This document shows, one piece after another, positions 1 through 10,041 of a stretch of 10,041 nt of DNA. Origin of the DNA: an uncultured Deinococcales bacterium (lineage in GTDB: Bacteria; Deinococcota; Deinococci; Deinococcales; JAAFIG01); assembly GCA_964247135.1 (NCBI GenBank), contig CAXTTL010000181.1, forward strand, positions 1 to 10,041, read 5' to 3'. The translations under genes and the position numbers were made by a program. Numbering within the stretch: the stretch's first letter is position 1; each line of letters begins with the position of its first letter. The notes under the pieces were generated by a model that searched no databases, was not told the origin of the DNA, and saw nothing but the letters and a program-made list of their open reading frames with translations.

Positions 1-181
1 TCAAGACGATGTGCCTGGTGCGTCGTTTCGGTGGTTGAGTATAGGCTGACTCGAGCACCGCCAATGCTCTGGTGGCTTGCGGATAGCCGTACCATTTCAT
101 GGTTGAGACAAAATACTTGCGCTCGTCAGCACTCAACTCGAGGGCGGCTCGGGCATTCGGGTGCAGGTGATCGGCGGGCAT
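1..181 (-). CDS. tniB: TniB/TnsC-family transposition NTP-binding protein, 5' part (runs off the window start; absent from the ORF track)
   Basis: Hand translation from ATG at 181: MPADHLHPNARAALELSADERKYFVSTMKWYGYPQATRALAVLESAYTQPPKRRTRHIVL..., open to the edge. It fits the TniB N-terminal pattern (HL-x-P...L-x-A-D-ER...W-x-GYP-x-A...LE...P-x-K-x-R) that precedes Walker A. The start overlaps the transposase stop (TGATG). Confidence 0.88.
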   Translation of the reverse strand, partial: MPADHLHPNARAALELSADERKYFVSTMKWYGYPQATRALAVLESAYTQPPKRRTRHIVL

Positions 182-2121
182 CAGCGTCCCACTTTGGGAA
201 TTCGCACATTCGTGTACAACCCACCTGGCGTGGTTCTCAAGGGAGCTTTCAGCGCGGCAACCTCGAGCTTCACGACTTGCTCCTGGACGGTTTGAAGCTT
301 AGATGGCGGAGCTTTCAAGGCAGTCTTCTGTGCCGCCTTGTCTGCGATTGCCCGTTCTGCCACCCGTTGTTCTCGTTGCTCGAGCTTCAACTGCCCCTCA
401 TACACCTTTTCGCTTGCCTGGTCTCCCCTGCTTTTGCGTTTCGCCTTGTTCGAGCTGCGAAGGTCCCAGAGGGTGGTTAACGCCATCGGTTTGACCGAGG
501 GCACCTCGATGTATTCATCCACGTCAGGATCAAGAAAGTAGATCACCCGCACATCCGATGGATCGCGGCGCAGCACAAACTTGCGTCCTTTGCGGCTCGC
601 CCCAGGTTCTTTCGCCAAGACAAAACGTCTGAGCGATGGATGGTAATAGAAGTTCGTGTCCAGGCTGATGCCCTCACGCTGAACCGTGCGTTCCTCAAAT
701 GGCAGGAAATCCAAGCGCAATCGTGCCACTAGATCAGCCGTGAGCCGGGCTGGAACACCCCTTCCAGGCTGTTCGACGTTGCCTTTGAGTCCCTCGAGGT
801 ACTTCTCCAACGGGGACATGCCAAGCTCACTGTGCTCGGCATTGTGATAGACCTCAACGATCAATTCGGTAAACCAGCCCTCGAGTTCCTCGAGCGTGAA
901 CAAATCAAACTCGTCCAGTTTGGTTTGAGAGCGGGATCGTTTGGTCTTGGGAATCGCCCCAACAATGTCCATCATCCAACCCTTCAGTGTCCCGGCAAGC
1001 CGTTCCACGTGAGCGCCGTAATTTGGTTTGGCGGGCGGGCGAAAGTCCTGTTGAATTGCGTAGCGCGGGTCGTTGCAGGCTCGCTCGAGCATCTTGCCAC
1101 GAAACTCTTTGGCGTTGTCCGCCGCCAGAATCTCAGGCAAACCCCAGCACGGCCAACTGCCGGTGATGCCGTGACGCGCTAGCATGGCATCTTTGGGCAG
1201 GAAGGCATTCACCAGGGCAAGCCCCGCCGAGAACGCGCTGGGTTTGACGAAGGTCAAACAAAACCCAATCACCATGCGGCTGTACACATCGATCACCAGG
1301 GTCGCCCAGGGTCGTTGTGGTTTGCCGCCCTGGCGTGGCACTTTCACCCGAAGCAGGGTGTGATCGATTTGCACCAAGGCGAGCGGATGGGTGGCTCGAG
1401 GATCGAACCCTTGAACGGCTTGCAGCGCCAGCGCGGCGGTGTAGCCGCCTCGAGCGCGGGCGGTGGAGATCGGATTCAGATGGTCAATCCTCGCTCGCAC
1501 GGTGTGACGGTGAGGCACGGGCAAGCCATCGGCTTTGCAGCGCTTGCGAACCACAAAGTTCACATGGCGCACGGATTTTCCGAGTTTTAGGTATTCTTGG
1601 GTGATCGCAAAATTGAGGATCGCTTCGACTCGAGCATCCAACCTGGAGGCACGGTGCGCTCCAGCTTTGCGGGCTGGTGCCAAATCCGCAATGTTGCCGT
1701 GCTCACGGTAGGCACGAATCCAACGGTAGATCGTCGTGTAATGCACACCGATGGTTTTGGCTTGGGCTTTGACCCGAGCGCCCAATTTCTCTTGCGAACC
1801 CTCGAGAAATGGTTTGATGATCTTGTACCGTGATCGGGCGATGTTCATCGAGTAATCGTCGGTTTTGGTTTTCTGAACAGCTTTTGGGACGTTGTCCTCC
1901 ACAGGCTCTGTGGTGGAGAGGGTGCCGATCGGCACGAGTTCGTTGTGACCAGTCTTGAGGTCAGAAACGATGACTTGATCCAAGTCGCCAAAGCCAACGA
2001 TGGTGACGGCTCGAGCACCATGCCAGACGACCTGACCGTGGTTCAACCAACGACGGGTTTTGGGGGTTGTGTGTTTGGCTCGAGCTACAGTTCCAGCAGA
2101 TTGCGGTTTTTTGCTCGACAT
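181..2121 (-). CDS. tniA: TniA/TnsB-family DDE transposase (rve integrase core, Mu-transposase C-terminal domain), about 646 aa
   Basis: HTH region (IARSRYKIIKPFL...IGVHYTTIYRWIRAY), DDE triad motifs QIDHT (~1357-1371), ADNAKEF (~1101-1122) and AHVERL (~997-1014), plus RPWATLVIDVYSRMVIGF, YHNAEHSELGMSP and RRDPSDVRVIYFLDP. ATG at 2121 is preferred to the track's TTG at 2157 because a TACACT box lies 5 nt upstream. Confidence 0.93.
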   Translation of the reverse strand: MSSKKPQSAGTVARAKHTTPKTRRWLNHGQVVWHGARAVTIVGFGDLDQVIVSDLKTGHNELVPIGTLSTTEPVEDNVPKAVQKTKTDDYSMNIARSRYKIIKPFLEGSQEKLGARVKAQAKTIGVHYTTIYRWIRAYREHGNIADLAPARKAGAHRASRLDARVEAILNFAITQEYLKLGKSVRHVNFVVRKRCKADGLPVPHRHTVRARIDHLNPISTARARGGYTAALALQAVQGFDPRATHPLALVQIDHTLLRVKVPRQGGKPQRPWATLVIDVYSRMVIGFCLTFVKPSAFSAGLALVNAFLPKDAMLARHGITGSWPCWGLPEILAADNAKEFRGKMLERACNDPRYAIQQDFRPPAKPNYGAHVERLAGTLKGWMMDIVGAIPKTKRSRSQTKLDEFDLFTLEELEGWFTELIVEVYHNAEHSELGMSPLEKYLEGLKGNVEQPGRGVPARLTADLVARLRLDFLPFEERTVQREGISLDTNFYYHPSLRRFVLAKEPGASRKGRKFVLRRDPSDVRVIYFLDPDVDEYIEVPSVKPMALTTLWDLRSSNKAKRKSRGDQASEKVYEGQLKLEQREQRVAERAIADKAAQKTALKAPPSKLQTVQEQVVKLEVAALKAPLRTTPGGLYTNVRIPKVGR

Positions 2122-2126
2122 TGAGG

Positions 2127-2157
2127 AGTGTAGCGCTCTACGGTGGACTGTTGTCAA
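2127..2157 (-). promoter_or_regulatory. Candidate sigma70 promoter for tniA, probably leaderless
   Basis: Minus strand reads TTGACA (2157-2152), a 19-nt spacer, TACACT (2132-2127), 5 nt, then ATG. No Shine-Dalgarno is evident. The spacer is longer than optimal. Confidence 0.5.
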
Positions 2158-2297
2158 CCTTTAGCAGCCTCGAGTATCGAGTTTTGCAGGCTTAGCTCAT
2201 CATTTGTGGTCAAAAAAGGGTGATTTTTAGCATTTTTGAGAAAAAAACGACATTTAAACTTTCCTCACTCGAGTCAGCCTCGAGCCTGGAGGAAGGT

Positions 2298-2846
2298 ATG
2301 AAAAAAACTTTTGGCGTTTTGGTGTTGTTTTGCGCATTCGGCTTGAACTCCTGCGCTCCTGAAAATACGCGCTCAGCCCTCAATTACTCGTTGCGCGACT
2401 TTCCAATGCTTCAAGGCGAAATCTGGGGTGTGGCGTTTGCGGCTGGCAGCGCCACGCTCGAATACCAAATGCGAATCGCAGAAACCCCCAAGCAACGTTC
2501 CACGGGCATATTTGGCGCGGCGCTCGAGCTGACGACCAAAAACGGCGGGACAGCCTATTTGGACCCTGACGATGACACGTTTAACATCCTGATTGCCACG
2601 GGTTCGACTTTTAAACTTTTGTGTTACGTCCCACGAAACAGCAATTTTAACGACGTACTCAAAGGCGATGGCGTTTTTCTGGATGACAACGGAAGCAAAA
2701 AAAGTGTCGGTTGCGCGATGGGCGTGCTCAGCAAACCAGCCTTGAACACTGCAACTTCGATTCGAAGGTTGGTTCACGAAGTCATATCCAACTCGCTTTC
2801 ATTGAAATCAAACCCGAGCCTGTCTTTAAAAACGATTTCCGAATAA
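2298..2846 (+). CDS. Hypothetical lipoprotein, 182 aa
   Basis: GGAGG at 2288-2292 precedes ATG 2298. MKKTFGVLVLFCAFGLNS-C is a basic/hydrophobic signal with a lipobox-like LNSC. No domain recognised. Confidence 0.75.
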   Translation: MKKTFGVLVLFCAFGLNSCAPENTRSALNYSLRDFPMLQGEIWGVAFAAGSATLEYQMRIAETPKQRSTGIFGAALELTTKNGGTAYLDPDDDTFNILIATGSTFKLLCYVPRNSNFNDVLKGDGVFLDDNGSKKSVGCAMGVLSKPALNTATSIRRLVHEVISNSLSLKSNPSLSLKTISE

Positions 2847-2875
2847 AGCCTGTTTTGGCGTTGAAGCTCGAGTTT

Positions 2876-2921
2876 GAAGACTCACCGTCGGTAACGTTTT
2901 GCTTACCGACGGTGAGTCTTC
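2876..2921. terminator. Perfect 19-bp inverted repeat between convergent genes, probable bidirectional terminator
   Basis: GAAGACTCACCGTCGGTAA (2876-2894), 8-nt loop CGTTTTGC, TTACCGACGGTGAGTCTTC (2903-2921). It lies between stops at 2846 (+) and 2953 (-). U-tracts are weak. Confidence 0.65.
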
Positions 2922-2952
2922 TCTCAATTGAATCTGTCGCAACTCACTCGAG

Positions 2953-3153
2953 TTATTGCACAACAAAACCCAGTTGCTTGGTGGCGGGTATCTTGAGGCT
3001 CACGCCGTTCTCGAGTTTGACCTCTCCCCCATCGCTGGCTTTGATATCGCTCGAGACGCTGTTCGGGTCTGGTGTGGGATTGCTGGCTGCTGGGCTGGTG
3101 GTTTGACATGCCATCATCAATGCCAATAAAAGCAAGGCTAAAATCTTTTGCAT
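2953..3153 (-). pseudogene. Short lipoprotein ORF (66 aa), probably a 3'-truncated remnant of a larger surface lipoprotein
   Basis: Strong RBS (GAAAGGAG) before ATG 3153, signal/lipobox MQKILALLLLALMMA-C, a P/T/S linker, then IKASDGGEVKLENGVSLKIPA. The last segment resembles the first strands of a ZU5-like beta domain, and the ORF stops 10 residues later. Confidence 0.55.
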
Positions 3154-3224
3154 GTTGCTCCTTTCTAACCGTGGTTTGGGAACTGTTCGGAGCATAGAAA
3201 ATGCAATCTGAAATTGGTCTGAAA

Positions 3225-4730
3225 TTACGGCTGGATGGCGGCGTTGATGTCCAGCAAACCCGCGCCGCATTTTGGACGTGAGCATGAAATCGCTTGCGCT
3301 GTATTCTCGAGCCTGGTTTTGATCTGGGCGGGCGTCCAGCTAGGATTCTTGGCAATAATGCGTGCCACGGCGGCACTGACAATCGGTGTGGCAAAGCTCG
3401 TGCCCTCGAGCGTTGCAATACCGTAACCTGCCACGCCGTTGTCCGTGACCACGGCGGTTTCGTTCGCGCCAGGTGCAGATAGGCTGACCCAATCGCCTGG
3501 GGTTGAATAGCTCGAGCCGAGCCAGTTTGTGCCGTCAAATTCGCTGGCAGCCACGGCGATCAAACCAGGAACCTCGAGGGCGTAGGCGGCGGGATAATTG
3601 GCGGGGTAATTGGCGGGCGGGTTGGCGCTTGCGCCGTCATTGCCCGCCGCCGCCACAAGGCTGATGTTTTGCGCACTCACCTCGAGCAGCACTTGTTTGA
3701 GGGCGCGAAATGGCTGTTTGCCGCCCAGGGAAAGATTGATGACTTTTGCCCCGCCCGCCACGGCTTGGCAAATTCCAAACACCACATCGCTGCCATTGCA
3801 ACGGTTTTTGCCCGCCTGGGTTTGGCAGACTTTAAATGGCAAAATCGGCGCACCGACCGCGTAGCCACGGCTTAAACCCAAACTCGAGCCAGAGATCAGT
3901 GCTGCAACGCCCGTGCCATGACCCATGATGTTCGCGCCGTAAAGTCCAAGGTCGCTGACATCGGATTGCAGCGCTCGAGGGTCGGATGGATTGTCAAAAT
4001 TGGTCAGGTTCTCCCCTACCCCCAGCGTCGCCAACAAACTCGGATGGCTCGAGACACCGCTGTCCAGCACAGCCACTTTGACATTGGCGAGGTTTGGATC
4101 ATCAATGGTTGGAATAGGGAGCGGCGTCGGTACAGCATTGGTTGCGATTTGACTGCCCGTGAGAAGCGAGCGCGGGTTGGCTTCATAACTTGGGTTAATG
4201 CGCTGAATTGCCACTTGCAGCTCGTTGAGCGCCACCGCTGTGGTCCGACCTCGAGTGTCCCTAAAGACCGCATAATGTTGATTGCAGGCGGGCAAAATGT
4301 TGCTGATGTCAGTTTGAAATTGCGTCAGGCTAAAACCGTTTTGACTGGCAATCTCGAGCGCTTCCTGTTGACTGAATGTTCCCTTCACCAGCACCTCTCG
4401 AGCCACCACATCAAGGTCATCCGCGCCGAGCACGGCTGGTCCTGGCGCGACCAATTCTGTGCCGTCGGTTTCGCGCAGCAGTACGTTGTACTCGCCGATG
4501 GGCAGGCTTGGCATGACCACCTGAATTTCAACGGCGTTGCTCGAGATGATGCTGGCATTGACAGCCCCAATCTTGACCGTGCTTCCAGTGTTAAAACCTG
4601 CGCCGCGAAGAATTACCGTCTCGCCAGCCGCCGCGACCCGAGGTGTGACACCAAGAAGTTGCACGGCGACCTTGCTCGAGTCGGCACAAGCCATCAAGAC
4701 CAGCAAAAACAGCAATTTCCAGCGCATCAT
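3225..4730 (-). CDS. S8 (subtilisin-family) serine peptidase lipoprotein with N-terminal IPT/TIG domain, 501 aa
   Basis: Lipobox VLMA-C, IPT/TIG-like segment (VTPRVAAAGETVILRGAGF...VKIG...IQVVMP), catalytic Asp (VAVLDSG), His (GHGTGVAALI), oxyanion Asn (VAAAGNDG), Ser (GTSFATP), and a C-terminal GAGLLDINAA. RBS AAGGAG lies inside the upstream gene. Confidence 0.95.
   Translation of the reverse strand: MMRWKLLFLLVLMACADSSKVAVQLLGVTPRVAAAGETVILRGAGFNTGSTVKIGAVNASIISSNAVEIQVVMPSLPIGEYNVLLRETDGTELVAPGPAVLGADDLDVVAREVLVKGTFSQQEALEIASQNGFSLTQFQTDISNILPACNQHYAVFRDTRGRTTAVALNELQVAIQRINPSYEANPRSLLTGSQIATNAVPTPLPIPTIDDPNLANVKVAVLDSGVSSHPSLLATLGVGENLTNFDNPSDPRALQSDVSDLGLYGANIMGHGTGVAALISGSSLGLSRGYAVGAPILPFKVCQTQAGKNRCNGSDVVFGICQAVAGGAKVINLSLGGKQPFRALKQVLLEVSAQNISLVAAAGNDGASANPPANYPANYPAAYALEVPGLIAVAASEFDGTNWLGSSYSTPGDWVSLSAPGANETAVVTDNGVAGYGIATLEGTSFATPIVSAAVARIIAKNPSWTPAQIKTRLENTAQAISCSRPKCGAGLLDINAAIQP
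3588..3623. repeat. In-frame 12-bp tandem repeat inside the S8 gene (two near-identical copies plus one degenerate), within the PPANYPANYPAAY segment
   Basis: Plus strand: GGCGGGATAATT GGCGGGGTAATT GGCGGGCGGGTT. Confidence 0.7.
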
Positions 4731-7615
4731 TGGACTCCTTTTATGGTTTGGGCGAGGATTTTGGCTTCAGTGTAAAACGCGGCATCGTAGTGGCTTGAGT
4801 CGCTCGGAATTTGCTCGAGTTGATGTAGCAATTGTTCGATGTGGGTTGAGGCTAAAGCGTGTTCAGCCAAAGCCAATTCGACCTCGGCGAGATTGTAGAG
4901 CGCTTCAAACTGCAATTGCGGAAAATCTTTTCCGACTTCCAAAGCCACGAGGTAATGCGCTTTGGCTTCCTGAAATTCTTGTTGGTGAAAGGCAGTCACG
5001 CCAAGATTGAACCTGCAATGGGCAATACCCCAATCGTCGCCGATTTCAGATTGCAAGGTTAAAACCCGCAAATATGCGGCTCGAGCGGCATCGTGTCGTT
5101 TCAGGACATCGTTGTACAACACGCCAAGGTTGTTCAGGCATCGCGCCAGGTTGACCACATCGCCAATCGCCTCGCAGAGCTTGACGCCCTCGAGCAAGGT
5201 CTGTTCGGATTTTGGGTCTTTTAAACCAACCAGTGCCGTGCCGAGGTTGTTGAGGGCGGCGGCAATTCGTGGGCGATCTCCCAAGGCTTGACGCAACCGC
5301 AATGCGCCCGCGAAAAATTCGGCGGCTTCGCTAAAATTCCCGCGCAAACGAGCCACCGTGCCCAAGGTGCTCCTGGCATCACTTTGCAATAACCTGGCTT
5401 CTTCGCCGCCCTCGCGTGCCAACCATTGCAACGCCTGTTCAGCCAAGGGTACGGCTTCCTCGAGTTGGTTCAGTTTCAGAGCCAAGATGTTGGCTCTGAC
5501 CACCAATGGCGCGGCTCGAGCCACCATGTCGGGGCTATGCTCCAACAAAACCTGGGCGTGATCCAGCGCTTCCAGGGCGGTTTGATGTTGTCCAAAACGC
5601 TCCAAGGCGCGACCCTGTTCGGTGAAAGCCCGAGCGCGAGTGCGCAGATCTCCCGCAATTTCGATGGCGCGTTCAAACCAGTGGCTTTGCAGTATGCCGC
5701 GTTGGGCAAAGGTCACACCTGCCTGAATAAAAACCGAGGCGGCATTTTCGCCATCGGTTTTATTCCAAACATTCTTGGCAGCCCAGTAATGCGCTGCCGC
5801 CTGAGTTGATGGGCGCAAAGCTCGAGCCGTCCGCAAATTGAGGACTTCAAACCGTGCGTGGCTTAAATCCTGTAAAGCGACTTCTCGGGTCAGGTCGTGG
5901 GCGAAAAAGAGATCATTGTGCTCAAAGCGAATCAAACCCGAAAATTCCAGCAGCTCGAGCGCCTCGGCAGTTTCCTCGAGCGAGCGTCCCGCGACCTCGC
6001 GCAACAAACCTTGGTTGGCGGTTCCCAACACCGCCAACGCGTCCAGCATTTGAGCCGCAACCGCAGGCAACCGTGCGATTCTGGCACGCAAGGCATCTTG
6101 AACCCGTGTGGGCAACACCGAATCGGGACTGCGCAACAACTCGAGCAAGAAAAATGGATTACCGCCCGAAGATTGATGCAAAACCTGCGCTCGGGTTTTG
6201 GTTCTGCCCAGCGTCTCGGCGAGCGATTCGGTGTCTTTAATGTTCAAGCCCGTCAAATGCAAATGTGACCCGTGTCCTTTGCGTCCAATCCAATCGAGCA
6301 TGGCTTGCAAATCGCTCTGGGCATTTTCGGTGTCGCGCACGGTTGCCACGACCAGCAAACCCTGGTCAGGGGGCGCACGTAGCAATTGCATGACCAGACG
6401 CACGCTGGCTTGATCCGCCCATTGCAAATCATCCAAAACCAGCAGTGCAGGCAGGTTTTGTTGCGTTAGCAAAGTGCGCCATGCCTCGAGCAAGACCCGT
6501 TCGGATAACTCGGGATGTCCAACTTTTAGGTTTTCGCCCAACAATTGCTGAATTGCCTCTTGATGCTCAACACGCAATACCGATATCGGGGTTTGCCGCA
6601 ACAAGCGCCGCAACGAGCGCTCGAGCAAACCAAAAACCGAATCCAACTGGGATGCCTCACCAAAAGCCACCAACCAACCCGCATTGGCAGCCTGATCCAT
6701 GAATGCTCGAGCCAAACGGGTTTTTCCCACGCCAGGTTCGCCGGACAACCAGACCAAACGCGCCTGGGTTGTGGTCACGAAAGCCATTTCAGCCCGCAAT
6801 TGCTGTTGTTCTTGTACGCGCCCCACCAAGGGCACTTCGGTTTCGGATTGCGAGATTTCGAGTGAAGATTTTCGTTTGACGCCAAGTTCACGTTGCAATT
6901 CGGCGAGCGCTTCACCGCGTCCCGCTCGAGCCAAATCGAGGGCTTGACGGGTTTTTGCCAAGGGTGCGACACCGAGATCATCTTGCAACGCCTGTTCCAA
7001 ACTTGCGAACACTTTCATTGCCTCATCCGGGCGCCCGAGTGCACCCAGGCACAACAACAACAAACGTGCGGCGTCCTCTCGGGGTTGGGCACTGGCTTGG
7101 GTTAGACGCAAAAATACGATTGCCTCCTCGAGCTTGTGCTGCGCTGCCAGATCGCTGCCGAGCCGCGTCGCCAAATCAAGCCGCATTTCCTCGAGCGATT
7201 CACGGTTTTGGTACAACCAAGCCTCGAACTCTTCGCCGTAGCCACGCGACCATTCCGGCAGGCGCAAACCCTCGAGAAACACGCCACGGTAGGCGTCAAA
7301 GGCAGTTTTGGTGTCTTGCTCCCAGCGAGAGCGCACATTTAAGACATCGCAAGTCCAATCGCCTTGCAAGATCAAGGTTTCGGTATCGCCGCCCAAGTGC
7401 TGACCCAAAACCTTACCCAACTGCACCCGAGCGGCTGAAACGCTGTTCAGCGAATCTGACGCGGCACTCCAGAGCAGGCGTGCAAGATCGCGGCGCTGCA
7501 ATCGCCCGTCCAAGGAGAGCATGGCGAGCATCGCTACGGCTTTCGCGCCGAGGCGCAACTCCACGCCGTCCAATTGGACGACCGGAACGCCGAGCCAGAA
7601 CAATGCCAGTGCCAT
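4727..7615 (-). CDS. AfsR/SARP-like regulator: wHTH + BTAD + AAA (STAND-type) ATPase + TPR repeats, 962 aa
   Basis: N-terminal LFWLGVPVV...KAVAMLAMLSLDG...RRDLARLLW; BTAD (YRGVFLEG...FEAWL; REDAARLLLLCL...GR...LGVAP); LVGRVQE; Walker A GEPGVGKT; Walker B LLVLDDLQWAD; SGGNPFFL; FAHDLTRE; C-terminal TPRs (ALNNLG, CLNNLG, FNLG, YNLA). The stop overlaps the S8 start (ATGA, 4727-4730). Confidence 0.92.
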   Translation of the reverse strand: MALALFWLGVPVVQLDGVELRLGAKAVAMLAMLSLDGRLQRRDLARLLWSAASDSLNSVSAARVQLGKVLGQHLGGDTETLILQGDWTCDVLNVRSRWEQDTKTAFDAYRGVFLEGLRLPEWSRGYGEEFEAWLYQNRESLEEMRLDLATRLGSDLAAQHKLEEAIVFLRLTQASAQPREDAARLLLLCLGALGRPDEAMKVFASLEQALQDDLGVAPLAKTRQALDLARAGRGEALAELQRELGVKRKSSLEISQSETEVPLVGRVQEQQQLRAEMAFVTTTQARLVWLSGEPGVGKTRLARAFMDQAANAGWLVAFGEASQLDSVFGLLERSLRRLLRQTPISVLRVEHQEAIQQLLGENLKVGHPELSERVLLEAWRTLLTQQNLPALLVLDDLQWADQASVRLVMQLLRAPPDQGLLVVATVRDTENAQSDLQAMLDWIGRKGHGSHLHLTGLNIKDTESLAETLGRTKTRAQVLHQSSGGNPFFLLELLRSPDSVLPTRVQDALRARIARLPAVAAQMLDALAVLGTANQGLLREVAGRSLEETAEALELLEFSGLIRFEHNDLFFAHDLTREVALQDLSHARFEVLNLRTARALRPSTQAAAHYWAAKNVWNKTDGENAASVFIQAGVTFAQRGILQSHWFERAIEIAGDLRTRARAFTEQGRALERFGQHQTALEALDHAQVLLEHSPDMVARAAPLVVRANILALKLNQLEEAVPLAEQALQWLAREGGEEARLLQSDARSTLGTVARLRGNFSEAAEFFAGALRLRQALGDRPRIAAALNNLGTALVGLKDPKSEQTLLEGVKLCEAIGDVVNLARCLNNLGVLYNDVLKRHDAARAAYLRVLTLQSEIGDDWGIAHCRFNLGVTAFHQQEFQEAKAHYLVALEVGKDFPQLQFEALYNLAEVELALAEHALASTHIEQLLHQLEQIPSDSSHYDAAFYTEAKILAQTIKGVQ

Positions 7616-7623
7616 TGTTTACG

Positions 7624-7632
7624 AGCGTACCA
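7624..7632 (-). promoter_or_regulatory. Candidate extended -10 element for the regulator-protease operon
   Basis: Minus strand TGGTACGCT (TGn-TAnnnT) ends 8 nt before ATG 7615. No SD lies in that gap. Confidence 0.4.
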
Positions 7633-7693
7633 GACCAACCTTAAAATCCTGGCAAACATCAACGCAACCACCTCCAAGACTGTTTATATGCTA

Positions 7694-7723
7694 AAGAAAT
7701 GGGTCTGAAAATGCCCTGAAAAT
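7694..7723. repeat. 11-bp-phased direct repeats (AAGAAAT / CTGAAAAT / CTGAAAAT) in the divergent intergenic region
   Basis: GAAA cores at 7696, 7707 and 7718. CTGAAAAT is exact at 7705-7712 and 7716-7723. Confidence 0.5.
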
Positions 7724-7877
7724 CTCGAGCGCCAGACTTGAATTCTCAGGAGCGCCAATGGGATTCTTGTAGGCGATTGCAAAAATGACCGCGCCAACCC
7801 CGTTGATTGCGTTACAATACTTTTTAGCACCAGGTTGAAGCATCAAAAGTCCAGCTCAAAACCCCAGGAGGTTCAGC

Positions 7878-8237
7878 ATGAAATTTCAAACCGTCTTACT
7901 CGCATCCGTCGCCGCCGTGTTTGTGGCTTGCGCCCCAAGTCCAGACCGTCCCAGCGTGCTCCCAGTCTTGATTAAACTCTCCGAACCAGCCGCCGTGGGG
8001 CAAAACCTGACCATTCAAGGTCGTTACCTTGGCGGACCCAGCAACTCAAGCGTCAACCTTGGGGCGGATGATTTGGGCAATGGCGGCGTGAAAAACTCGA
8101 GCGCCGATGTGGTGTCTTGGACTTCGACCGAAATTGTTTTGAAAATTCCAGTCGGGGCGCGTCCTGGCGGACATTTTGTTTTTGTTGAGGTGGGCGGCTT
8201 GCGTTCAAACTTCTTGCCATACAGCGTCAATCCTTAA
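7878..8237 (+). CDS. Small IPT/TIG-domain lipoprotein, 119 aa
   Basis: RBS AGGAGG, lipobox FVA-C, and IPT/TIG signature P-VL..LS...A..GQNLTIQGRYLG...VVSWTSTEIVLKIP...V-VGG-RSN. Confidence 0.88.
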   Translation: MKFQTVLLASVAAVFVACAPSPDRPSVLPVLIKLSEPAAVGQNLTIQGRYLGGPSNSSVNLGADDLGNGGVKNSSADVVSWTSTEIVLKIPVGARPGGHFVFVEVGGLRSNFLPYSVNP

Positions 8238-8242
8238 GCCAC

Positions 8243-8266
8243 CCTGATCTCAAACCTGATCTCAAA
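8243..8266. repeat. Exact 12-bp tandem direct repeat CCTGATCTCAAA x2
   Basis: Copies at 8243-8254 and 8255-8266, just after the stop at 8237. Confidence 0.75.
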
Positions 8267-8269
8267 ACC

Positions 8270-8313
8270 GCCGTTGAAAATCTCGAGCTTCAAAGATTTC
8301 AACGGCTTTTTTT
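8270..8313 (+). terminator. Rho-independent terminator downstream of the IPT/TIG lipoprotein gene
   Basis: GCCGTTGAAA(A)TCT pairs with AGATTTCAACGGC, followed by T7 (8307-8313). Confidence 0.75.
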
Positions 8314-8321
8314 GTGGCATG

Positions 8322-8350
8322 GTGACGCACCCAAAAAAAGCCGTTATGAT
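8322..8350 (+). promoter_or_regulatory. Candidate leaderless promoter of hisS-aspS
   Basis: GTGACG (8322-8327), 17 nt, TATGAT (8345-8350), 6 nt, then GTG start at 8357. No SD. Confidence 0.65.
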
Positions 8351-8356
8351 GCAGGC

Positions 8357-9625
8357 GTGAAGTATCAGACGATCAAAGGCACCAAAGATCGCCTTCCCAG
8401 CGATGCCCCAACCTGGCGTTTTATTTTGGAAACTGCCCGTGTGGTGCTCGAGCGTTTTGGCGCGGGCGAAATCCATACCCCAGTGTTTGAAGACACCGGC
8501 GTGTTTCACAAAGCTGTCGGCGAATCGAGCGACATTGTCCGCAAGGAAATGTACAATTTCTCCGACAAGGGCGACCGCCATTTAACATTGCGTCCAGAAG
8601 CCACCGCGCCGATGGTTCGCGCCTTTCTCGAGCATGGTTTCTCGAGCAAGCCCAGCCCGACCAAATTCTGGACTTTTGAACCGATGTTTCGCGCCGAGAA
8701 ACCGCAACGTGGGCGCGAGCGACAGTTTCACCAGTTGGGACTCGAGATCATTGGGTTGAGCGATGCGTTTGCGGATGCCGAATGTATCGATGCGGGTTGG
8801 AGCTTGATGACGGCGCTCGGCATTCAAAACTATCAAATTCACCTGGGCAGTGTGGGCGACCCCGAGGACAGGCTCGAGTTCAATGCGTACTTGCGAGAGA
8901 GGCTCTCCCCTGTTCTGGACCGGCTTTCCGAGGATTCCAAAGAGCGCCTCGAGTTAAACCCGATGCGGATTCTCGATTCCAAAAGTGCCGGCGACCAAAC
9001 GTTACTGAAAGAACTTGAGGTCAAACCGATGCTCGAGTTTCTGGGGGTTGCCGCGAAGGTGCATTTTGAGGAATTGCAACACCATTTGCGCGAGTGGAAG
9101 ATTCCATTTGTGGTGGACTCGAGCATCGTGCGCGGTTTGGATTATTACCGCCGCAGCGCCTTCGAATTCATTCACAACGCCGAGTCTATGCGCGGCTGCT
9201 CGACCATTTTGGCGGGCGGACGGTACGACGGGCTGGCGGAGATGCTGGGCGGTCAACACACTCCAGGCATCGGTTGGGGTAGCGGTGTGGAACGAATTGT
9301 GTTGGCGCTTGAGGCAGAAGGCATTCCAGTTTCCGAAGTGGTCAAGCCTCTAGCGTACATCGTGCCCCTCGAGGTTGAAGCCCTTTCAACCGCTGGCAAT
9401 GTGGCTCGAGTGGTGCGCAATGTTGGGCAAGTTTTAACCGCTTATAAAGTCAAAGGTGTTGGCAAATCGCTCGCCGATGCCGAAAAATTTGGCGCGAAGT
9501 TCGCGGTTTTAATTGGTCAAGCCGAAATCGCAAATCAAACCGTCAGCATCCGTGACATGCAAACTCGAGAGCAAGTCAGTGTTCCGATCCATGATCTTGA
9601 AACATGGTTTCTCGAGCGACGTTAA
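8357..9625 (+). CDS. hisS: Histidine--tRNA ligase
   Basis: KGTKD, TPVFE, VGESSDIVRKEMYNF, LRPEATA, motif 2 FRAEKPQRGRERQFHQ, HisA loop RGLDYY, HisB GGRYDGL, motif 3 GWGSGVERI, and a C-terminal anticodon-binding domain. Start re-assigned to GTG 8357. Confidence 0.98.
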   Translation: MKYQTIKGTKDRLPSDAPTWRFILETARVVLERFGAGEIHTPVFEDTGVFHKAVGESSDIVRKEMYNFSDKGDRHLTLRPEATAPMVRAFLEHGFSSKPSPTKFWTFEPMFRAEKPQRGRERQFHQLGLEIIGLSDAFADAECIDAGWSLMTALGIQNYQIHLGSVGDPEDRLEFNAYLRERLSPVLDRLSEDSKERLELNPMRILDSKSAGDQTLLKELEVKPMLEFLGVAAKVHFEELQHHLREWKIPFVVDSSIVRGLDYYRRSAFEFIHNAESMRGCSTILAGGRYDGLAEMLGGQHTPGIGWGSGVERIVLALEAEGIPVSEVVKPLAYIVPLEVEALSTAGNVARVVRNVGQVLTAYKVKGVGKSLADAEKFGAKFAVLIGQAEIANQTVSIRDMQTREQVSVPIHDLETWFLERR

Positions 9626-9655
9626 TCAATCCAAGCGCAAATCTTTGAGGAGTTT

Positions 9656-10041
9656 ATGAAACGCACCCATTATTGTAACGATCTAACCGCCAAAAACGCT
9701 GGTCAAACCGTGCTTCTTCAAGGTTGGGCGTCTCGAGTTCGGGACACCAAGGGCGCAAATTTTATTGTGCTGCGCGACCGAACTGGCATTGTTCAAGTCA
9801 CAGTCGAAGTCGATAACTCGAGTTACGGGGTTTCCACCGAGGTCCGTTCCGAATTTGTGCTCGAGGTTGAGGGATTGGTGCAATTGCGAGACGAGAACAA
9901 CCGAACCAGCCAGTACGCGACGGGTGAGATTGAAATTATTCCGACGCGGCTCGAGGTTCTTTCCACCGCCAAACCCGTACCGTTTCCTGTGGATGGCACG
10001 CCGCTCACGGCTTCTGAAGAAGTTCGCATGAAATACCGCTA
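9656..10041 (+). CDS. aspS: Aspartate--tRNA ligase, bacterial type, 5' part (runs off the window end; absent from the ORF track)
   Basis: RBS GAGGAG, ATG 9656. Hand translation: MKRTHYCNDLTAKNAGQTVLLQGWASRVRDTKGANFIVLRDRTGIVQV...VRSEFVLEVEGLV...ATGEIE...PFPV...SEEVRMKYR. It directly follows hisS. Confidence 0.96.
   Translation, partial: MKRTHYCNDLTAKNAGQTVLLQGWASRVRDTKGANFIVLRDRTGIVQVTVEVDNSSYGVSTEVRSEFVLEVEGLVQLRDENNRTSQYATGEIEIIPTRLEVLSTAKPVPFPVDGTPLTASEEVRMKYR

Follow-up and report, generated by a model that had tools for sequence, protein, structure and literature searches.

Short palindromes that recur along the chromosome far more often than expected are known from cyanobacteria as highly iterated palindromes (HIPs). 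Passages in Elhai (2015, PMC4390886) and in Xu, Lawrence and Durand (2018, PMC5861425) list HIP1 (GCGATCGC) and the alternates GGCGCC, rCCGGy, GCsGC, GGGATCCC and TCGATCGA. Here, we describe a comparable excess of the hexamer CTCGAG in a bacterium of a different phylum. The analysis covers a stretch of 10,041 nucleotides (nt), in the following called the window, which is contig C181 of the source assembly of an uncultured Deinococcales bacterium (G000; 5.09 Mb, 386 contigs, 84% complete), together with the complete assembly and related genomes. The excess of CTCGAG is very probably a real and ongoing whole-word bias of the HIP type, which characterises one uncultured Deinococcales family (f1).

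HIPs reach densities of about 300-2,700 copies per Mb, as given in a section of Elhai (2015, PMC4390886), and HIP1 shows a periodicity of 10-90 kb along the chromosome in the corresponding part of Xu et al. (2018, PMC5861425). Further excerpts of the HIP1 literature report that the word raises transformation in Synechococcus 7002, with large and partly methylation-dependent effects, and that its abundance correlates with uptake and secretion genes; HIP1 has also been regressed on the presence or absence of protein families with phylogenetic correction (PMC13756078, in part). In their relevant passages, the HIP papers treat the phenomenon as cyanobacterial (PMC4390886, PMC5861425). In the literature outside subscription journals, no report of CTCGAG hyper-abundance, or of any HIP outside cyanobacteria, was found.

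Like the HIPs, CTCGAG is a short palindrome that is over-represented tens-fold, occurs in all frames of genes and in spacers, and is conserved at orthologous sites above background. In both cases the excess is lineage-wide and its function unexplained, and the alternate HIP GGCGCC is likewise a six-mer. A reading of the window by its letters and open reading frames (ORFs), hereafter the sequence-only reading, had proposed a HIP1-like palindrome outside the cyanobacteria, and abundance, use of all frames and conservation agree with this proposal. The two systems differ in phylum and in word, and CTCGAG has a G+C content of 67% in a genome of 53% G+C. It is also denser, with about 6,660 copies per Mb, and it makes Leu-Glu the most over-represented dipeptide. 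Finally, a cognate methylase has been reported for every HIP genome (Elhai), whereas none was found in f1.

The DNA uptake sequences (DUS) of Neisseriaceae and the uptake signal sequences (USS) of Pasteurellaceae provide a second comparison. Their accumulation has been ascribed to molecular drive, and preferential uptake and a receptor have been demonstrated for them. As in the CTCGAG case, one short word is present in genome-wide excess, is common to related species and is poorer in recently acquired DNA; it also occurs in coding DNA with effects on the proteome, and its conservation as well as its gain can be accounted for by a transmission bias. In contrast, DUS and USS are asymmetric words of 9-12 bp that occur about once per kb, whereas CTCGAG is a six-base palindrome with near-background flanks that occurs once per 150 bp. 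Moreover, neither an uptake preference nor a receptor is known for CTCGAG.

A third type of sequence-specific DNA process that alters oligonucleotide frequencies genome-wide is the Dcm/Vsr very-short-patch repair, which shapes the frequencies of CCWGG and CTAG in E. coli. It differs from the present case in that neither Vsr nor a shared 5-methylcytosine (m5C) methylase was found in the 19 f1 genomes, and in that the CTCGAG effect is 25-fold and independent of the direction of the base change. The avoidance of words that are targets of type II restriction is strong in G000 for the words of its own nucleases, but CTCGAG goes the opposite way.

Abundance of CTCGAG in the window and in the genome

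The window contains exactly 70 copies of CTCGAG, which span positions 50..9955 and are identical on both strands, the word being a palindrome. Dinucleotide-preserving shuffles of the window gave a mean of 2.05 copies and a maximum of 7, and none of 200 attained 70. The excess of about 34-fold bears out the earlier estimate of about 70 copies at more than 20-fold over an expectation of about three. The G+C content is 53-57% along the window.

In the complete assembly, 33,925 copies were counted, i.e. one per 150 bp, against 1,369 expected from base composition (observed-to-expected ratio, O/E, 24.8), and CTCGAG ranks first among all hexamers by frequency. It is found once per 95-391 bp in each of the 297 contigs above 5 kb (297/297). 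The preference is for the exact word: its one-base variants reach about 100-2,200 copies each, the fifteen other words of the form NTCGAN count 121-2,188 copies, and the reversed word GAGCTC is absent (0 copies). The bases on either side differ little from background (39% of the sites have G at -1 and C at +1). A HIP is a short palindrome in tens- to hundreds-fold excess with hundreds to thousands of copies per Mb, and this describes CTCGAG.

Independence from coding content and composition

It might be argued that no dedicated process exists and that the excess of CTCGAG follows from composition at the level of codons, dipeptides or oligonucleotides, from a short mobile element dispersed through the genome, or from assembly or binning. 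A maximal-order Markov model would fit this view: the genome-wide hexamer comparison that the sequence-only reading had proposed as a check gives an O/E of 24.8 against base composition, but just 1.24 against this model. The latter value was rejected as a null because the sub-words on which the model draws are themselves made of, and dominated by, CTCGAG. In addition, CTC-GAG codon pairs raise the counts 2-3-fold in high-GC relatives and phages, where GAGCTC is raised alongside.

Coding and non-coding DNA were compared with a crude ORF set, consisting of the longest non-overlapping ORFs of at least 100 amino acids (aa), which comprises 4,514 ORFs and 86% of the G000 DNA. Non-coding density equals coding density, with one site per 133 bp and one per 154 bp, respectively. 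The coding sites use all three frames, 17,385 as CTC-GAG, 6,602 as xxC-TCG-AGx and 4,544 as xCT-CGA-Gxx. When synonymous codons were shuffled within each gene, 4,050 sites were obtained (3,995-4,133 in five replicates), compared with 28,531 observed. This 7-fold excess refers to a shuffle in which protein sequence and codon usage, already inflated by CTCGAG, stay the same. Shuffling the codon order left about 1,690 sites, corresponding to a 17-fold excess. As is typical of HIPs, the word thus occupies genes in all frames as well as spacers, and codon usage does not account for it. The earlier assertion that codon or dipeptide bias is insufficient therefore holds under shuffles that preserve codons and proteins.

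The absence of GAGCTC also speaks against a compositional origin, and the near-background flanks show that CTCGAG is not part of a longer repeat. The same bias is present in metagenome-assembled genomes (MAGs) from several independent projects and in one closed genome, and the sites are conserved at orthologous positions. Codon or dipeptide bias, a longer dispersed repeat and an assembly artefact are excluded or unlikely, and an explanation without any dedicated process has next to no credibility. GC-biased conversion was considered as well and is unlikely, since positions 2 and 5 of the word favour T/A.

The bias extends to the proteins. Leu-Glu pairs are written as CTC-GAG in 76.6% of the cases, while context-free codon use predicts 4.9%, and the Leu-Glu dipeptide itself occurs 22,696 times in the ORFs against 9,497 expected. 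Its O/E of 2.39 is not surpassed by any other dipeptide (Glu-Leu 1.01, Ser-Ser 1.63). CTCGAG occupies 77% of the Leu-Glu, 44% of the [SPTA]-R-[VADEG] and 46% of the permissive x-S-[SR] positions. Within hisS of the window, several sites fall on residues that are altered relative to other families. The site at 9032 encodes Leu-Glu in 11/13 f1 genomes, where 12/14 outgroups have Leu-Asp; Leu-Glu at 8741 stands against Tyr-Glu in 10/14 outgroups, Thr-Arg-Glu at 9564 against Thr/Ser-Gly-Glu in 10/14 outgroups, and Asp-Ser-Ser at 9118 against an outgroup Asp-Pro-Ser/Thr.

Arrangement along the genome

CTCGAG is spread almost randomly through genes, spacers, tRNA stems and mobile cassettes, and apart from codon phasing its distribution is Poisson-like. 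The gaps between neighbouring sites in G000 have a mean of 148 bp, a median of 108 bp and a coefficient of variation of 0.96, which is near Poisson. Gaps divisible by three are about 1.7 times commoner owing to the coding-frame preference, and once this 3-bp term was removed, no helical phasing at 10-11 bp was detected. Gaps of exactly 6 bp do not occur (0 cases, compared with 87 of 7 bp and 115 of 9 bp); such a tandem would create GAGCTC, which is absent from the genome.

Windows of 5 kb contain 33.2 +/- 8.0 sites (Poisson SD 5.8) and never fewer than 8. Where sites are scarcest, in the poorest windows and the longest gaps, the genes are of accessory type and encode a DDE transposase, S8 peptidases with TPR/AAA partners, a glycosidase/sugar-transport operon, pilins, an O-antigen ligase and proteins without known family. 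An Rfam scan of the longest motif-free stretches matched no RNA family, and these gaps are therefore not rRNA. For eleven restriction-modification or defence cassettes, genome density would predict 173 sites, whereas 134 were counted (Poisson P = 0.0013); in nine of them, CTCGAG is sparser than in the adjoining flanks. The extreme case is a BcnI/MvaI pair of 39% G+C with one site in 1.56 kb; the other cassettes have 4-8 sites per kb, where chance alone would give about 0.27, and most of them are 15-30 times above chance.

In 66 predicted tRNA genes, some of which are doubtful, 10 CTCGAG were counted, compared with 34 at genome density. The word lies within stems of convincing tRNA-Glu, tRNA-Asp and tRNA-Val genes on contigs C14, C46 and C157 of G000.

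Distribution across Deinococcales and viruses

The sequence-only reading had placed the window in a non-cyanobacterial lineage of the Deinococcota and had foreseen similar enrichment in relatives. Its lineage assignment is confirmed by the HisS relatives in species-representative genomes, which all bear the title 'MAG: Deinococcales bacterium' and stem from several projects. Each of their hisS loci (11/11) has one CTCGAG per 122-225 bp at 45-54% G+C. Whole-genome word counts over 121 Deinococcales genomes, with rounded genome sizes, then revealed 12,028-35,442 CTCGAG, or about 1/147 to 1/233 bp, in 19/19 sampled genomes of f1 from five genera, together with 0-568 GAGCTC. Enrichment in relatives is thus evident, and the excess is not confined to the window or its assembly, which would have spoken against the whole idea, but is present in MAGs throughout f1 and in a closed genome.

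The remaining four Deinococcales families contain far fewer CTCGAG. Genera g13, g22, g24, g6 and g21 have a moderate excess of up to about 1/330 bp, with GAGCTC 5-100 times lower, while genus g9 has about 1,500-2,500 CTCGAG and a similar number of GAGCTC, which is an ordinary codon effect. Because of these counts, the extreme state is regarded as the trait of one uncultured family, with the word being favoured more weakly elsewhere in the order. In genus g7 (26 genomes of 2.8-4.8 Mb), CTCGAG is depleted to 40-942 copies. This is opposite to f1, and a resident XhoI-type restriction system would have such an effect.

A scan of viral sequences for tight CTCGAG triplets found no phage with the f1 signature among the matches listed, which are mostly high-GC phages with equally common GAGCTC. 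Words were counted over whole records in five viral entries. Viral contig G122 (L149; 36.9 kb, 66% G+C) contains 100 CTCGAG and one GAGCTC, a signature like that of the moderately enriched high-GC Deinococcales, and record G124 (4.8 kb) contains 18 CTCGAG and one GAGCTC. Viruses of moderately enriched high-GC hosts may share the bias.

Conservation, gain and loss of sites

Pairwise, CTCGAG sites are conserved at 78-94% within a genus, compared with about 41% for other hexamers, and at 38-58% between genera, compared with 12-17%. Conservation above background between related genomes is a further property of HIPs that CTCGAG displays. Changes were polarised with two genomes of the same genus, G045 and G085, whose DNA was mapped onto G000. 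This direction of mapping was chosen because the first 20 kb of contig C1, searched against five same-genus genomes, gave short weak matches alone and is not a conserved stretch. The resulting 45,174 three-way aligned bases have pairwise identities of 82-86%. This sample of about 45 kb is conserved and largely coding, comes from a single genus and includes 34 clear gains. The three-genome tree is star-like, and changes were therefore assigned to terminal branches by majority rule.

CTCGAG was present in at least one genome at 465 alignment columns, 242 of them shared by all three genomes, 135 by two and 88 by one. Per branch, 726/861 ancestral CTCGAG (84.3%) were retained, compared with 37,509/56,896 other hexamers (65.9%; Fisher P = 2e-33). 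Single changes account for 89/135 losses and are nearly all transitions (CTCGAA 17, TTCGAG 17, CTCAAG 13, CTCGGG 12, CTTGAG 11, CCCGAG 7). By position, 24 losses are at 3/4 and 34 at 1/6, and the inner cytosine is no hot spot.

Gains are accelerated as well. Words one base off turned into CTCGAG on 13/222 branches; for transition-type neighbours the proportion was 12/91 (13.2%), which is about four times the 3.0% of generic transitions (P = 2e-5), and for transversion-type neighbours 1/131. The source words were TTCGAG, CCCGAG, CTCGGG, CTTGAG, CTCAAG and CTCGAA, and T>C, C>T and G>A changes contributed at outer, middle and inner positions alike, with gain rates that are based on small numbers (CCCGAG 3/20, CTCGGG 3/19, TTCGAG 3/18). 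The bias acts at each of the six positions and in both directions of transition. Among the 34 clear gains, in which the other two genomes are identical, 21 required more than one hit, compared with 25% in the control (P = 7e-6), and this multi-hit excess persisted under filters for well-aligned flanks (13/21, 10/18 and 6/12 vs 21-23%). About half of the new sites thus require two or more changes. The multi-hit excess fits two readings, either that completable one-off words are short-lived or that partial sites are already favoured. Gains and losses numbered 28/34 in the G000 lineage, 24/42 in G045 and 36/59 in G085. Higher retention and faster gain from one-off words substantiate the earlier idea of a dedicated process that creates or keeps the site.

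The strength of the bias can be approximated from G000, where the site outnumbers its transition neighbours by 33,925 to 2,145, 2,175 and 1,439. Under a two-state equilibrium approximation, this would correspond to a fixation-bias ratio of about 16-24 and a scaled advantage of roughly 3 per site. Such an advantage is weak for a single site but pervasive, and it would prevail over codon choice and over the cost of slightly deleterious amino-acid replacements.

One possible, if doubtful, cause is direct selection: each CTCGAG, or the overall density, would have a chromosomal function, for example as a target of proteins that organise the nucleoid or act in repair or replication, or as a tag of self DNA, and would be maintained by weak purifying and positive selection. 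The sequence-only reading had likewise named a protein site and a self-DNA tag. The positional conservation well above background is what this predicts, and the same argument is made for HIP1 in a passage of Xu et al. (PMC5861425). The multi-hit gain excess would fit partial sites whose advantage is graded, as it is where proteins bind DNA, and the lower CTCGAG content of foreign-looking islands could be exploited by a self-tag. On the other hand, the essentially random spacing, free of phasing and of ties to gene features, is an argument against roles that depend on position, and a protein that binds the word is not known. Selection would also have to act separately on about 34,000 sites, with a scaled advantage of about 3 for each, which is a heavy requirement. 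On the present data, direct selection and a transmission bias are indistinguishable.

Search for a cognate methylase, Vsr or nuclease

A further explanation is methylation-linked repair, along the lines of Elhai's HIP model (2015) or of Dcm/Vsr. A methylase for CTCGAG or its core TCGA would mark the word, and mark-biased repair would convert near-sites into it. The model draws support from the statement in Elhai's paper that every HIP-bearing cyanobacterial genome encodes a methylase for the word (PMC4390886) and from CTCGAG methylation in nature, which published excerpts mention for a predicted M. smegmatis system and for hot-spring metaepigenomes; the passages in question of the hot-spring epigenome preprint do not tie it to Deinococcota. 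The exact six-base palindrome also corresponds to the specificity of a type II methylase, and G000 is just 84% complete.

Methylases of G000 were identified by Pfam searches and by screening ORFs of at least 150 aa for the motif-IV signature (D/N/S)PP(Y/F/W/H), with 60/66 ORFs scanned. The genome encodes two m5C methylases, three or four PF01555 proteins, one Dam-like, two MmeI-like, one HsdM and one Eco57I/SNF2 enzyme, and the motif-IV screen of these 60/66 ORFs added no candidate for a shared methylase. All six small methylases (6/6) adjoin nucleases, of the NgoPII, Eco29kI, PvuII, MvaI/BcnI, SacI and NotI-like types, and HsdM sits with HsdS and an ATPase in a type I system. As shared agents, the G000 methylases were rejected, since all of them are in a restriction-modification or defence context.

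The words that G000 avoids match its own nuclease genes. The O/E is 0.016 for GGCC and 0.066 for CCSGG; CCGCGG occurs 11 times, CAGCTG 15 times, GRGCYC 11 times compared with about 6,118 expected, and both GAGCTC and GCGGCCGC are absent (0 copies). Further avoided palindromes are GGGCCC (1), CGGCCG (3), AGGCCT (4), CGTACG (5) and GGATCC (7). GGCC is also avoided in relatives that lack the NgoPII cassette at its G000 locus, and this points to a common pool of restriction systems that has persisted for long. The XhoI nuclease family PF04555 had no match in G000, in a search that also returned none in any control genome, and CTCGAG is enriched, whereas a target of XhoI/PaeR7I-type restriction would be avoided.

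Across the 19 f1 genomes, most of which are incomplete assemblies, no orthologue common to all was found in PF00145, PF01555, PF02384, PF07669 or PF02086, with orthology judged by scores, identities and a few contexts. For a methylase specific for the word or its core, such as has been reported for every HIP genome, these five Pfam families thus gave no shared candidate in 19/19 genomes. Of two strongly enriched genomes, G030 (closed; 23,515 sites) encodes one PF00145 and no PF01555 protein, and G040 (21,883 sites, 91% complete) encodes one PF01555 and no PF00145 protein. The methylase contexts in G030 are type I, type ISP, SacI-like and m5C/HD-CE/ORC-CDC6-like, the exception being a 282-aa Dam-like enzyme without nuclease neighbour. 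The sole m5C methylase of G030 shares its operon (G030:C1:4978500-4988000, L253) with genes for an HD-CE protein and an ORC/CDC6-like ATPase, which makes this a defence-like three-gene unit and not a classical methylase-nuclease pair.

The Dam-like enzyme has orthologues of at least 57% identity in 8/19 f1 genomes and in genus g6, and none was found in g13, g21, g22 or g24. In G045 and G085, the orthologue (62-64% identity) is coupled to a protein of 376-396 aa without known family, which is probably an unclassified nuclease. The pair is located in a cassette hot spot between a nucleoside hydrolase gene and Sua5 (G000 C14:36040-37936, L260:8308-10342, L261:7524-9493), a slot that is filled in G000 by an NgoPII-type nuclease and an m5C methylase. 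No homologue of the Dam-like enzyme was detected in G000, although this genome gains and keeps CTCGAG as the carriers do. Carriers do not stand out by avoidance of GATC or of other palindromes, and in G000 GATC is neutral (O/E 0.95). Present in 8/19 genomes, part of a cassette in genus g1 and missing from G000, the Dam-like enzyme was rejected as the agent.

A divergent alpha-class methylase in G000 (C4:28580-30016) contains the motif I sequence DPFCGTGS and, about 190 residues later, TSPPY, and has a partial Pfam match. In three other genomes, just the flanking 37 residues of this locus match, as in a cassette polymorphic for insertion or deletion. With orthologues in 4/19 f1 genomes, this enzyme was also rejected.

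Vsr (PF03852) was found in 0/19 f1 genomes, including G000, while control genomes gave matches. Neither a Vsr with a cognate m5C methylase nor a limitation of gains to T-to-C changes was observed, and C>T and G>A gains are impossible for a T:G-to-C:G repair, in line with the inner cytosine being no hot spot of loss. The sequence-only reading had named methylation-directed repair or conversion by an orphan CTCGAG/TCGA methylase as a possible process, and this part of it did not withstand the analysis: there is no shared methylase, the small methylases of G000 are nuclease-linked and match avoided words, the orphan-looking candidates (the Dam-like one being the only orphan of G030) reach 8/19 and 4/19 genomes, and gains run in all three directions. 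Methylation-linked repair is accordingly an unlikely origin of the bias.

Kin-DNA uptake or recombination as a possible agent

As the agent behind the whole-word bias, uptake or recombination of DNA from kin can be put forward tentatively. CTCGAG would be recognised when kin DNA is taken up or recombined, and alleles that carry it would then be transmitted preferentially, by a molecular drive as proposed for DUS and USS and now suggested for HIP1. The agent would be something other than a cognate methylase with repair. The specificity is for exactly six bases, symmetric and all-or-none, which points to a dimeric DNA reader similar to type II enzymes. The sites are spaced at random and are as frequent in spacers as in genes, which suggests that what counts is density and not position. 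In a more specific version, which is rather speculative, CTCGAG would be a kin-recognition word read by a non-methyltransferase, i.e. a density-coded signal of self or kin in uptake, recombination or discrimination of foreign DNA, spread by biased transmission, old, and weaker in the other Deinococcales families. The motif-poor accessory windows and defence cassettes favour uptake or recombination, as a signal of residence time or of a different gene pool. A further point in favour is the HIP1 parallel, with its reported effects on transformation and its correlation with uptake and secretion genes.

Several observations weigh against this proposal. ComEC and DprA are present as uptake machinery, but they say little because they are near-universal (control matches in 10-11/14 genomes), and no reader protein has been identified. 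Known uptake sequences are longer, asymmetric and sparser, as described above, and Thermus is not known to have a sequence preference in DNA uptake. One site per 150 bp is far denser than fragment-wise uptake needs and would discriminate poorly unless density is read. Positional conservation and accelerated gain are equally expected if selection acts directly on each site, and a methylase of an unrecognised family, or one encoded in unassembled DNA, is possible. The gain/loss sample is small, with its 34 clear gains from one genus and mostly coding DNA, and the ORF set is crude. Uptake or recombination is still placed first, direct selection second and methylation-linked repair third; what is left of our belief goes to something not yet imagined.

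Genes and sites of the window

The sites of the window start, on both strands, at 50, 137, 262, 379, 793, 880, 889, 1084, 1395, 1449, 1629, 1801, 2010, 2079, 2169, 2268, 2279, 2523, 2867, 2947, 3010, 3050, 3306, 3405, 3511, 3573, 3681, 3883, 3974, 4048, 4250, 4353, 4397, 4540, 4675, 4814, 5080, 5189, 5459, 5515, 5821, 5954, 5975, 6140, 6485, 6620, 6706, 6925, 7127, 7190, 7271, 7724, 8096, 8282, 8447, 8627, 8641, 8741, 8873, 8948, 9032, 9118, 9368, 9405, 9564, 9611, 9732, 9817, 9860 and 9950.

The hisS gene (8312..9625, + strand; TIGR00442, 2.4e-126) carries 12 sites in three frames (9.1 per kb). Eight are CTC-GAG and encode Leu-Glu, those at 8641 and 9118 are xxC-TCG-AGx (FSS and DSS), and those at 9405 and 9564 are xCT-CGA-Gxx (ARV and TRE), so that the frames assigned earlier proved correct position by position. 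Downstream, the 5' part of aspS (9656..10041, + strand; NF001750, 1.4e-36) has four sites (10.4 per kb), and upstream a spacer with a 119-aa ORF without known family (7616..8311) has three, at 7724, 8096 and 8282.

On the minus strand, a gene for an S8 (subtilisin/mycosin-like) peptidase (3225..4730; TIGR03921, 1.3e-43, below cut-off) contains 13 sites (8.6 per kb), and a gene for a 962-aa STAND-like protein with TPR and AAA matches (4727..7615) contains 16 (5.5 per kb). The two genes overlap by 4 bp and are translationally coupled (3225-7615). Similar pairs of peptidase and TPR/AAA genes are found in motif-poor accessory islands of G000 on contigs C5, C13, C109 and C78, and the pair may be a mobile or defence-type module.

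A transposase-like ORF of 658 aa (181..2157, - strand), with weak IS481/IS630/IS3 matches under curated cut-offs, has 12 sites (6.1 per kb), so that even this ORF of mobile-element type carries CTCGAG near genome density. It overlaps an open-ended 159-aa ORF (1-480, + strand), and one of the two is probably spurious. The stretch that follows (2158..3224) contains just ORFs lacking a family match and eight sites (7.5 per kb). Seven sites had been called intergenic in the sequence-only reading: those at 2169, 7724 and 8282 do lie between ORFs of at least 100 aa, and for those at 2268, 2279, 2867 and 2947 the label is plausible, since they fall among the ORFs without family match in 2158-3224.

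Implications

Hyper-abundant palindromes have been a puzzle for thirty years that was confined to cyanobacteria, and CTCGAG provides an independent second system for any general explanation. It is denser, belongs to another phylum, undergoes measurable gain and loss, has a visible cost for the proteome and apparently lacks a cognate methylase. It thereby challenges the methylase-centred model and makes transmission bias, a self-mark and a nucleoid function testable; cultured relatives with a weaker bias are probably available. The present analysis adds polarised gains and losses, family-wide negatives for methylases and Vsr including a natural experiment, the matching of avoided words to resident restriction systems, and figures for the saturation of permissive positions.

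For the family itself, CTCGAG biases the statistics of codon usage and dipeptides and is a strong signature for binning and for the assignment of viruses to hosts within the clade. If the DNA of the family is unmodified, digestion with XhoI-type enzymes would yield pieces of about 150 bp. Should the word indeed serve kin recognition, it would be the first HIP shown to work without a cognate methylase, and it would represent a third mechanistically distinct class of uptake or self-marking sequences after DUS/USS and HIP1.

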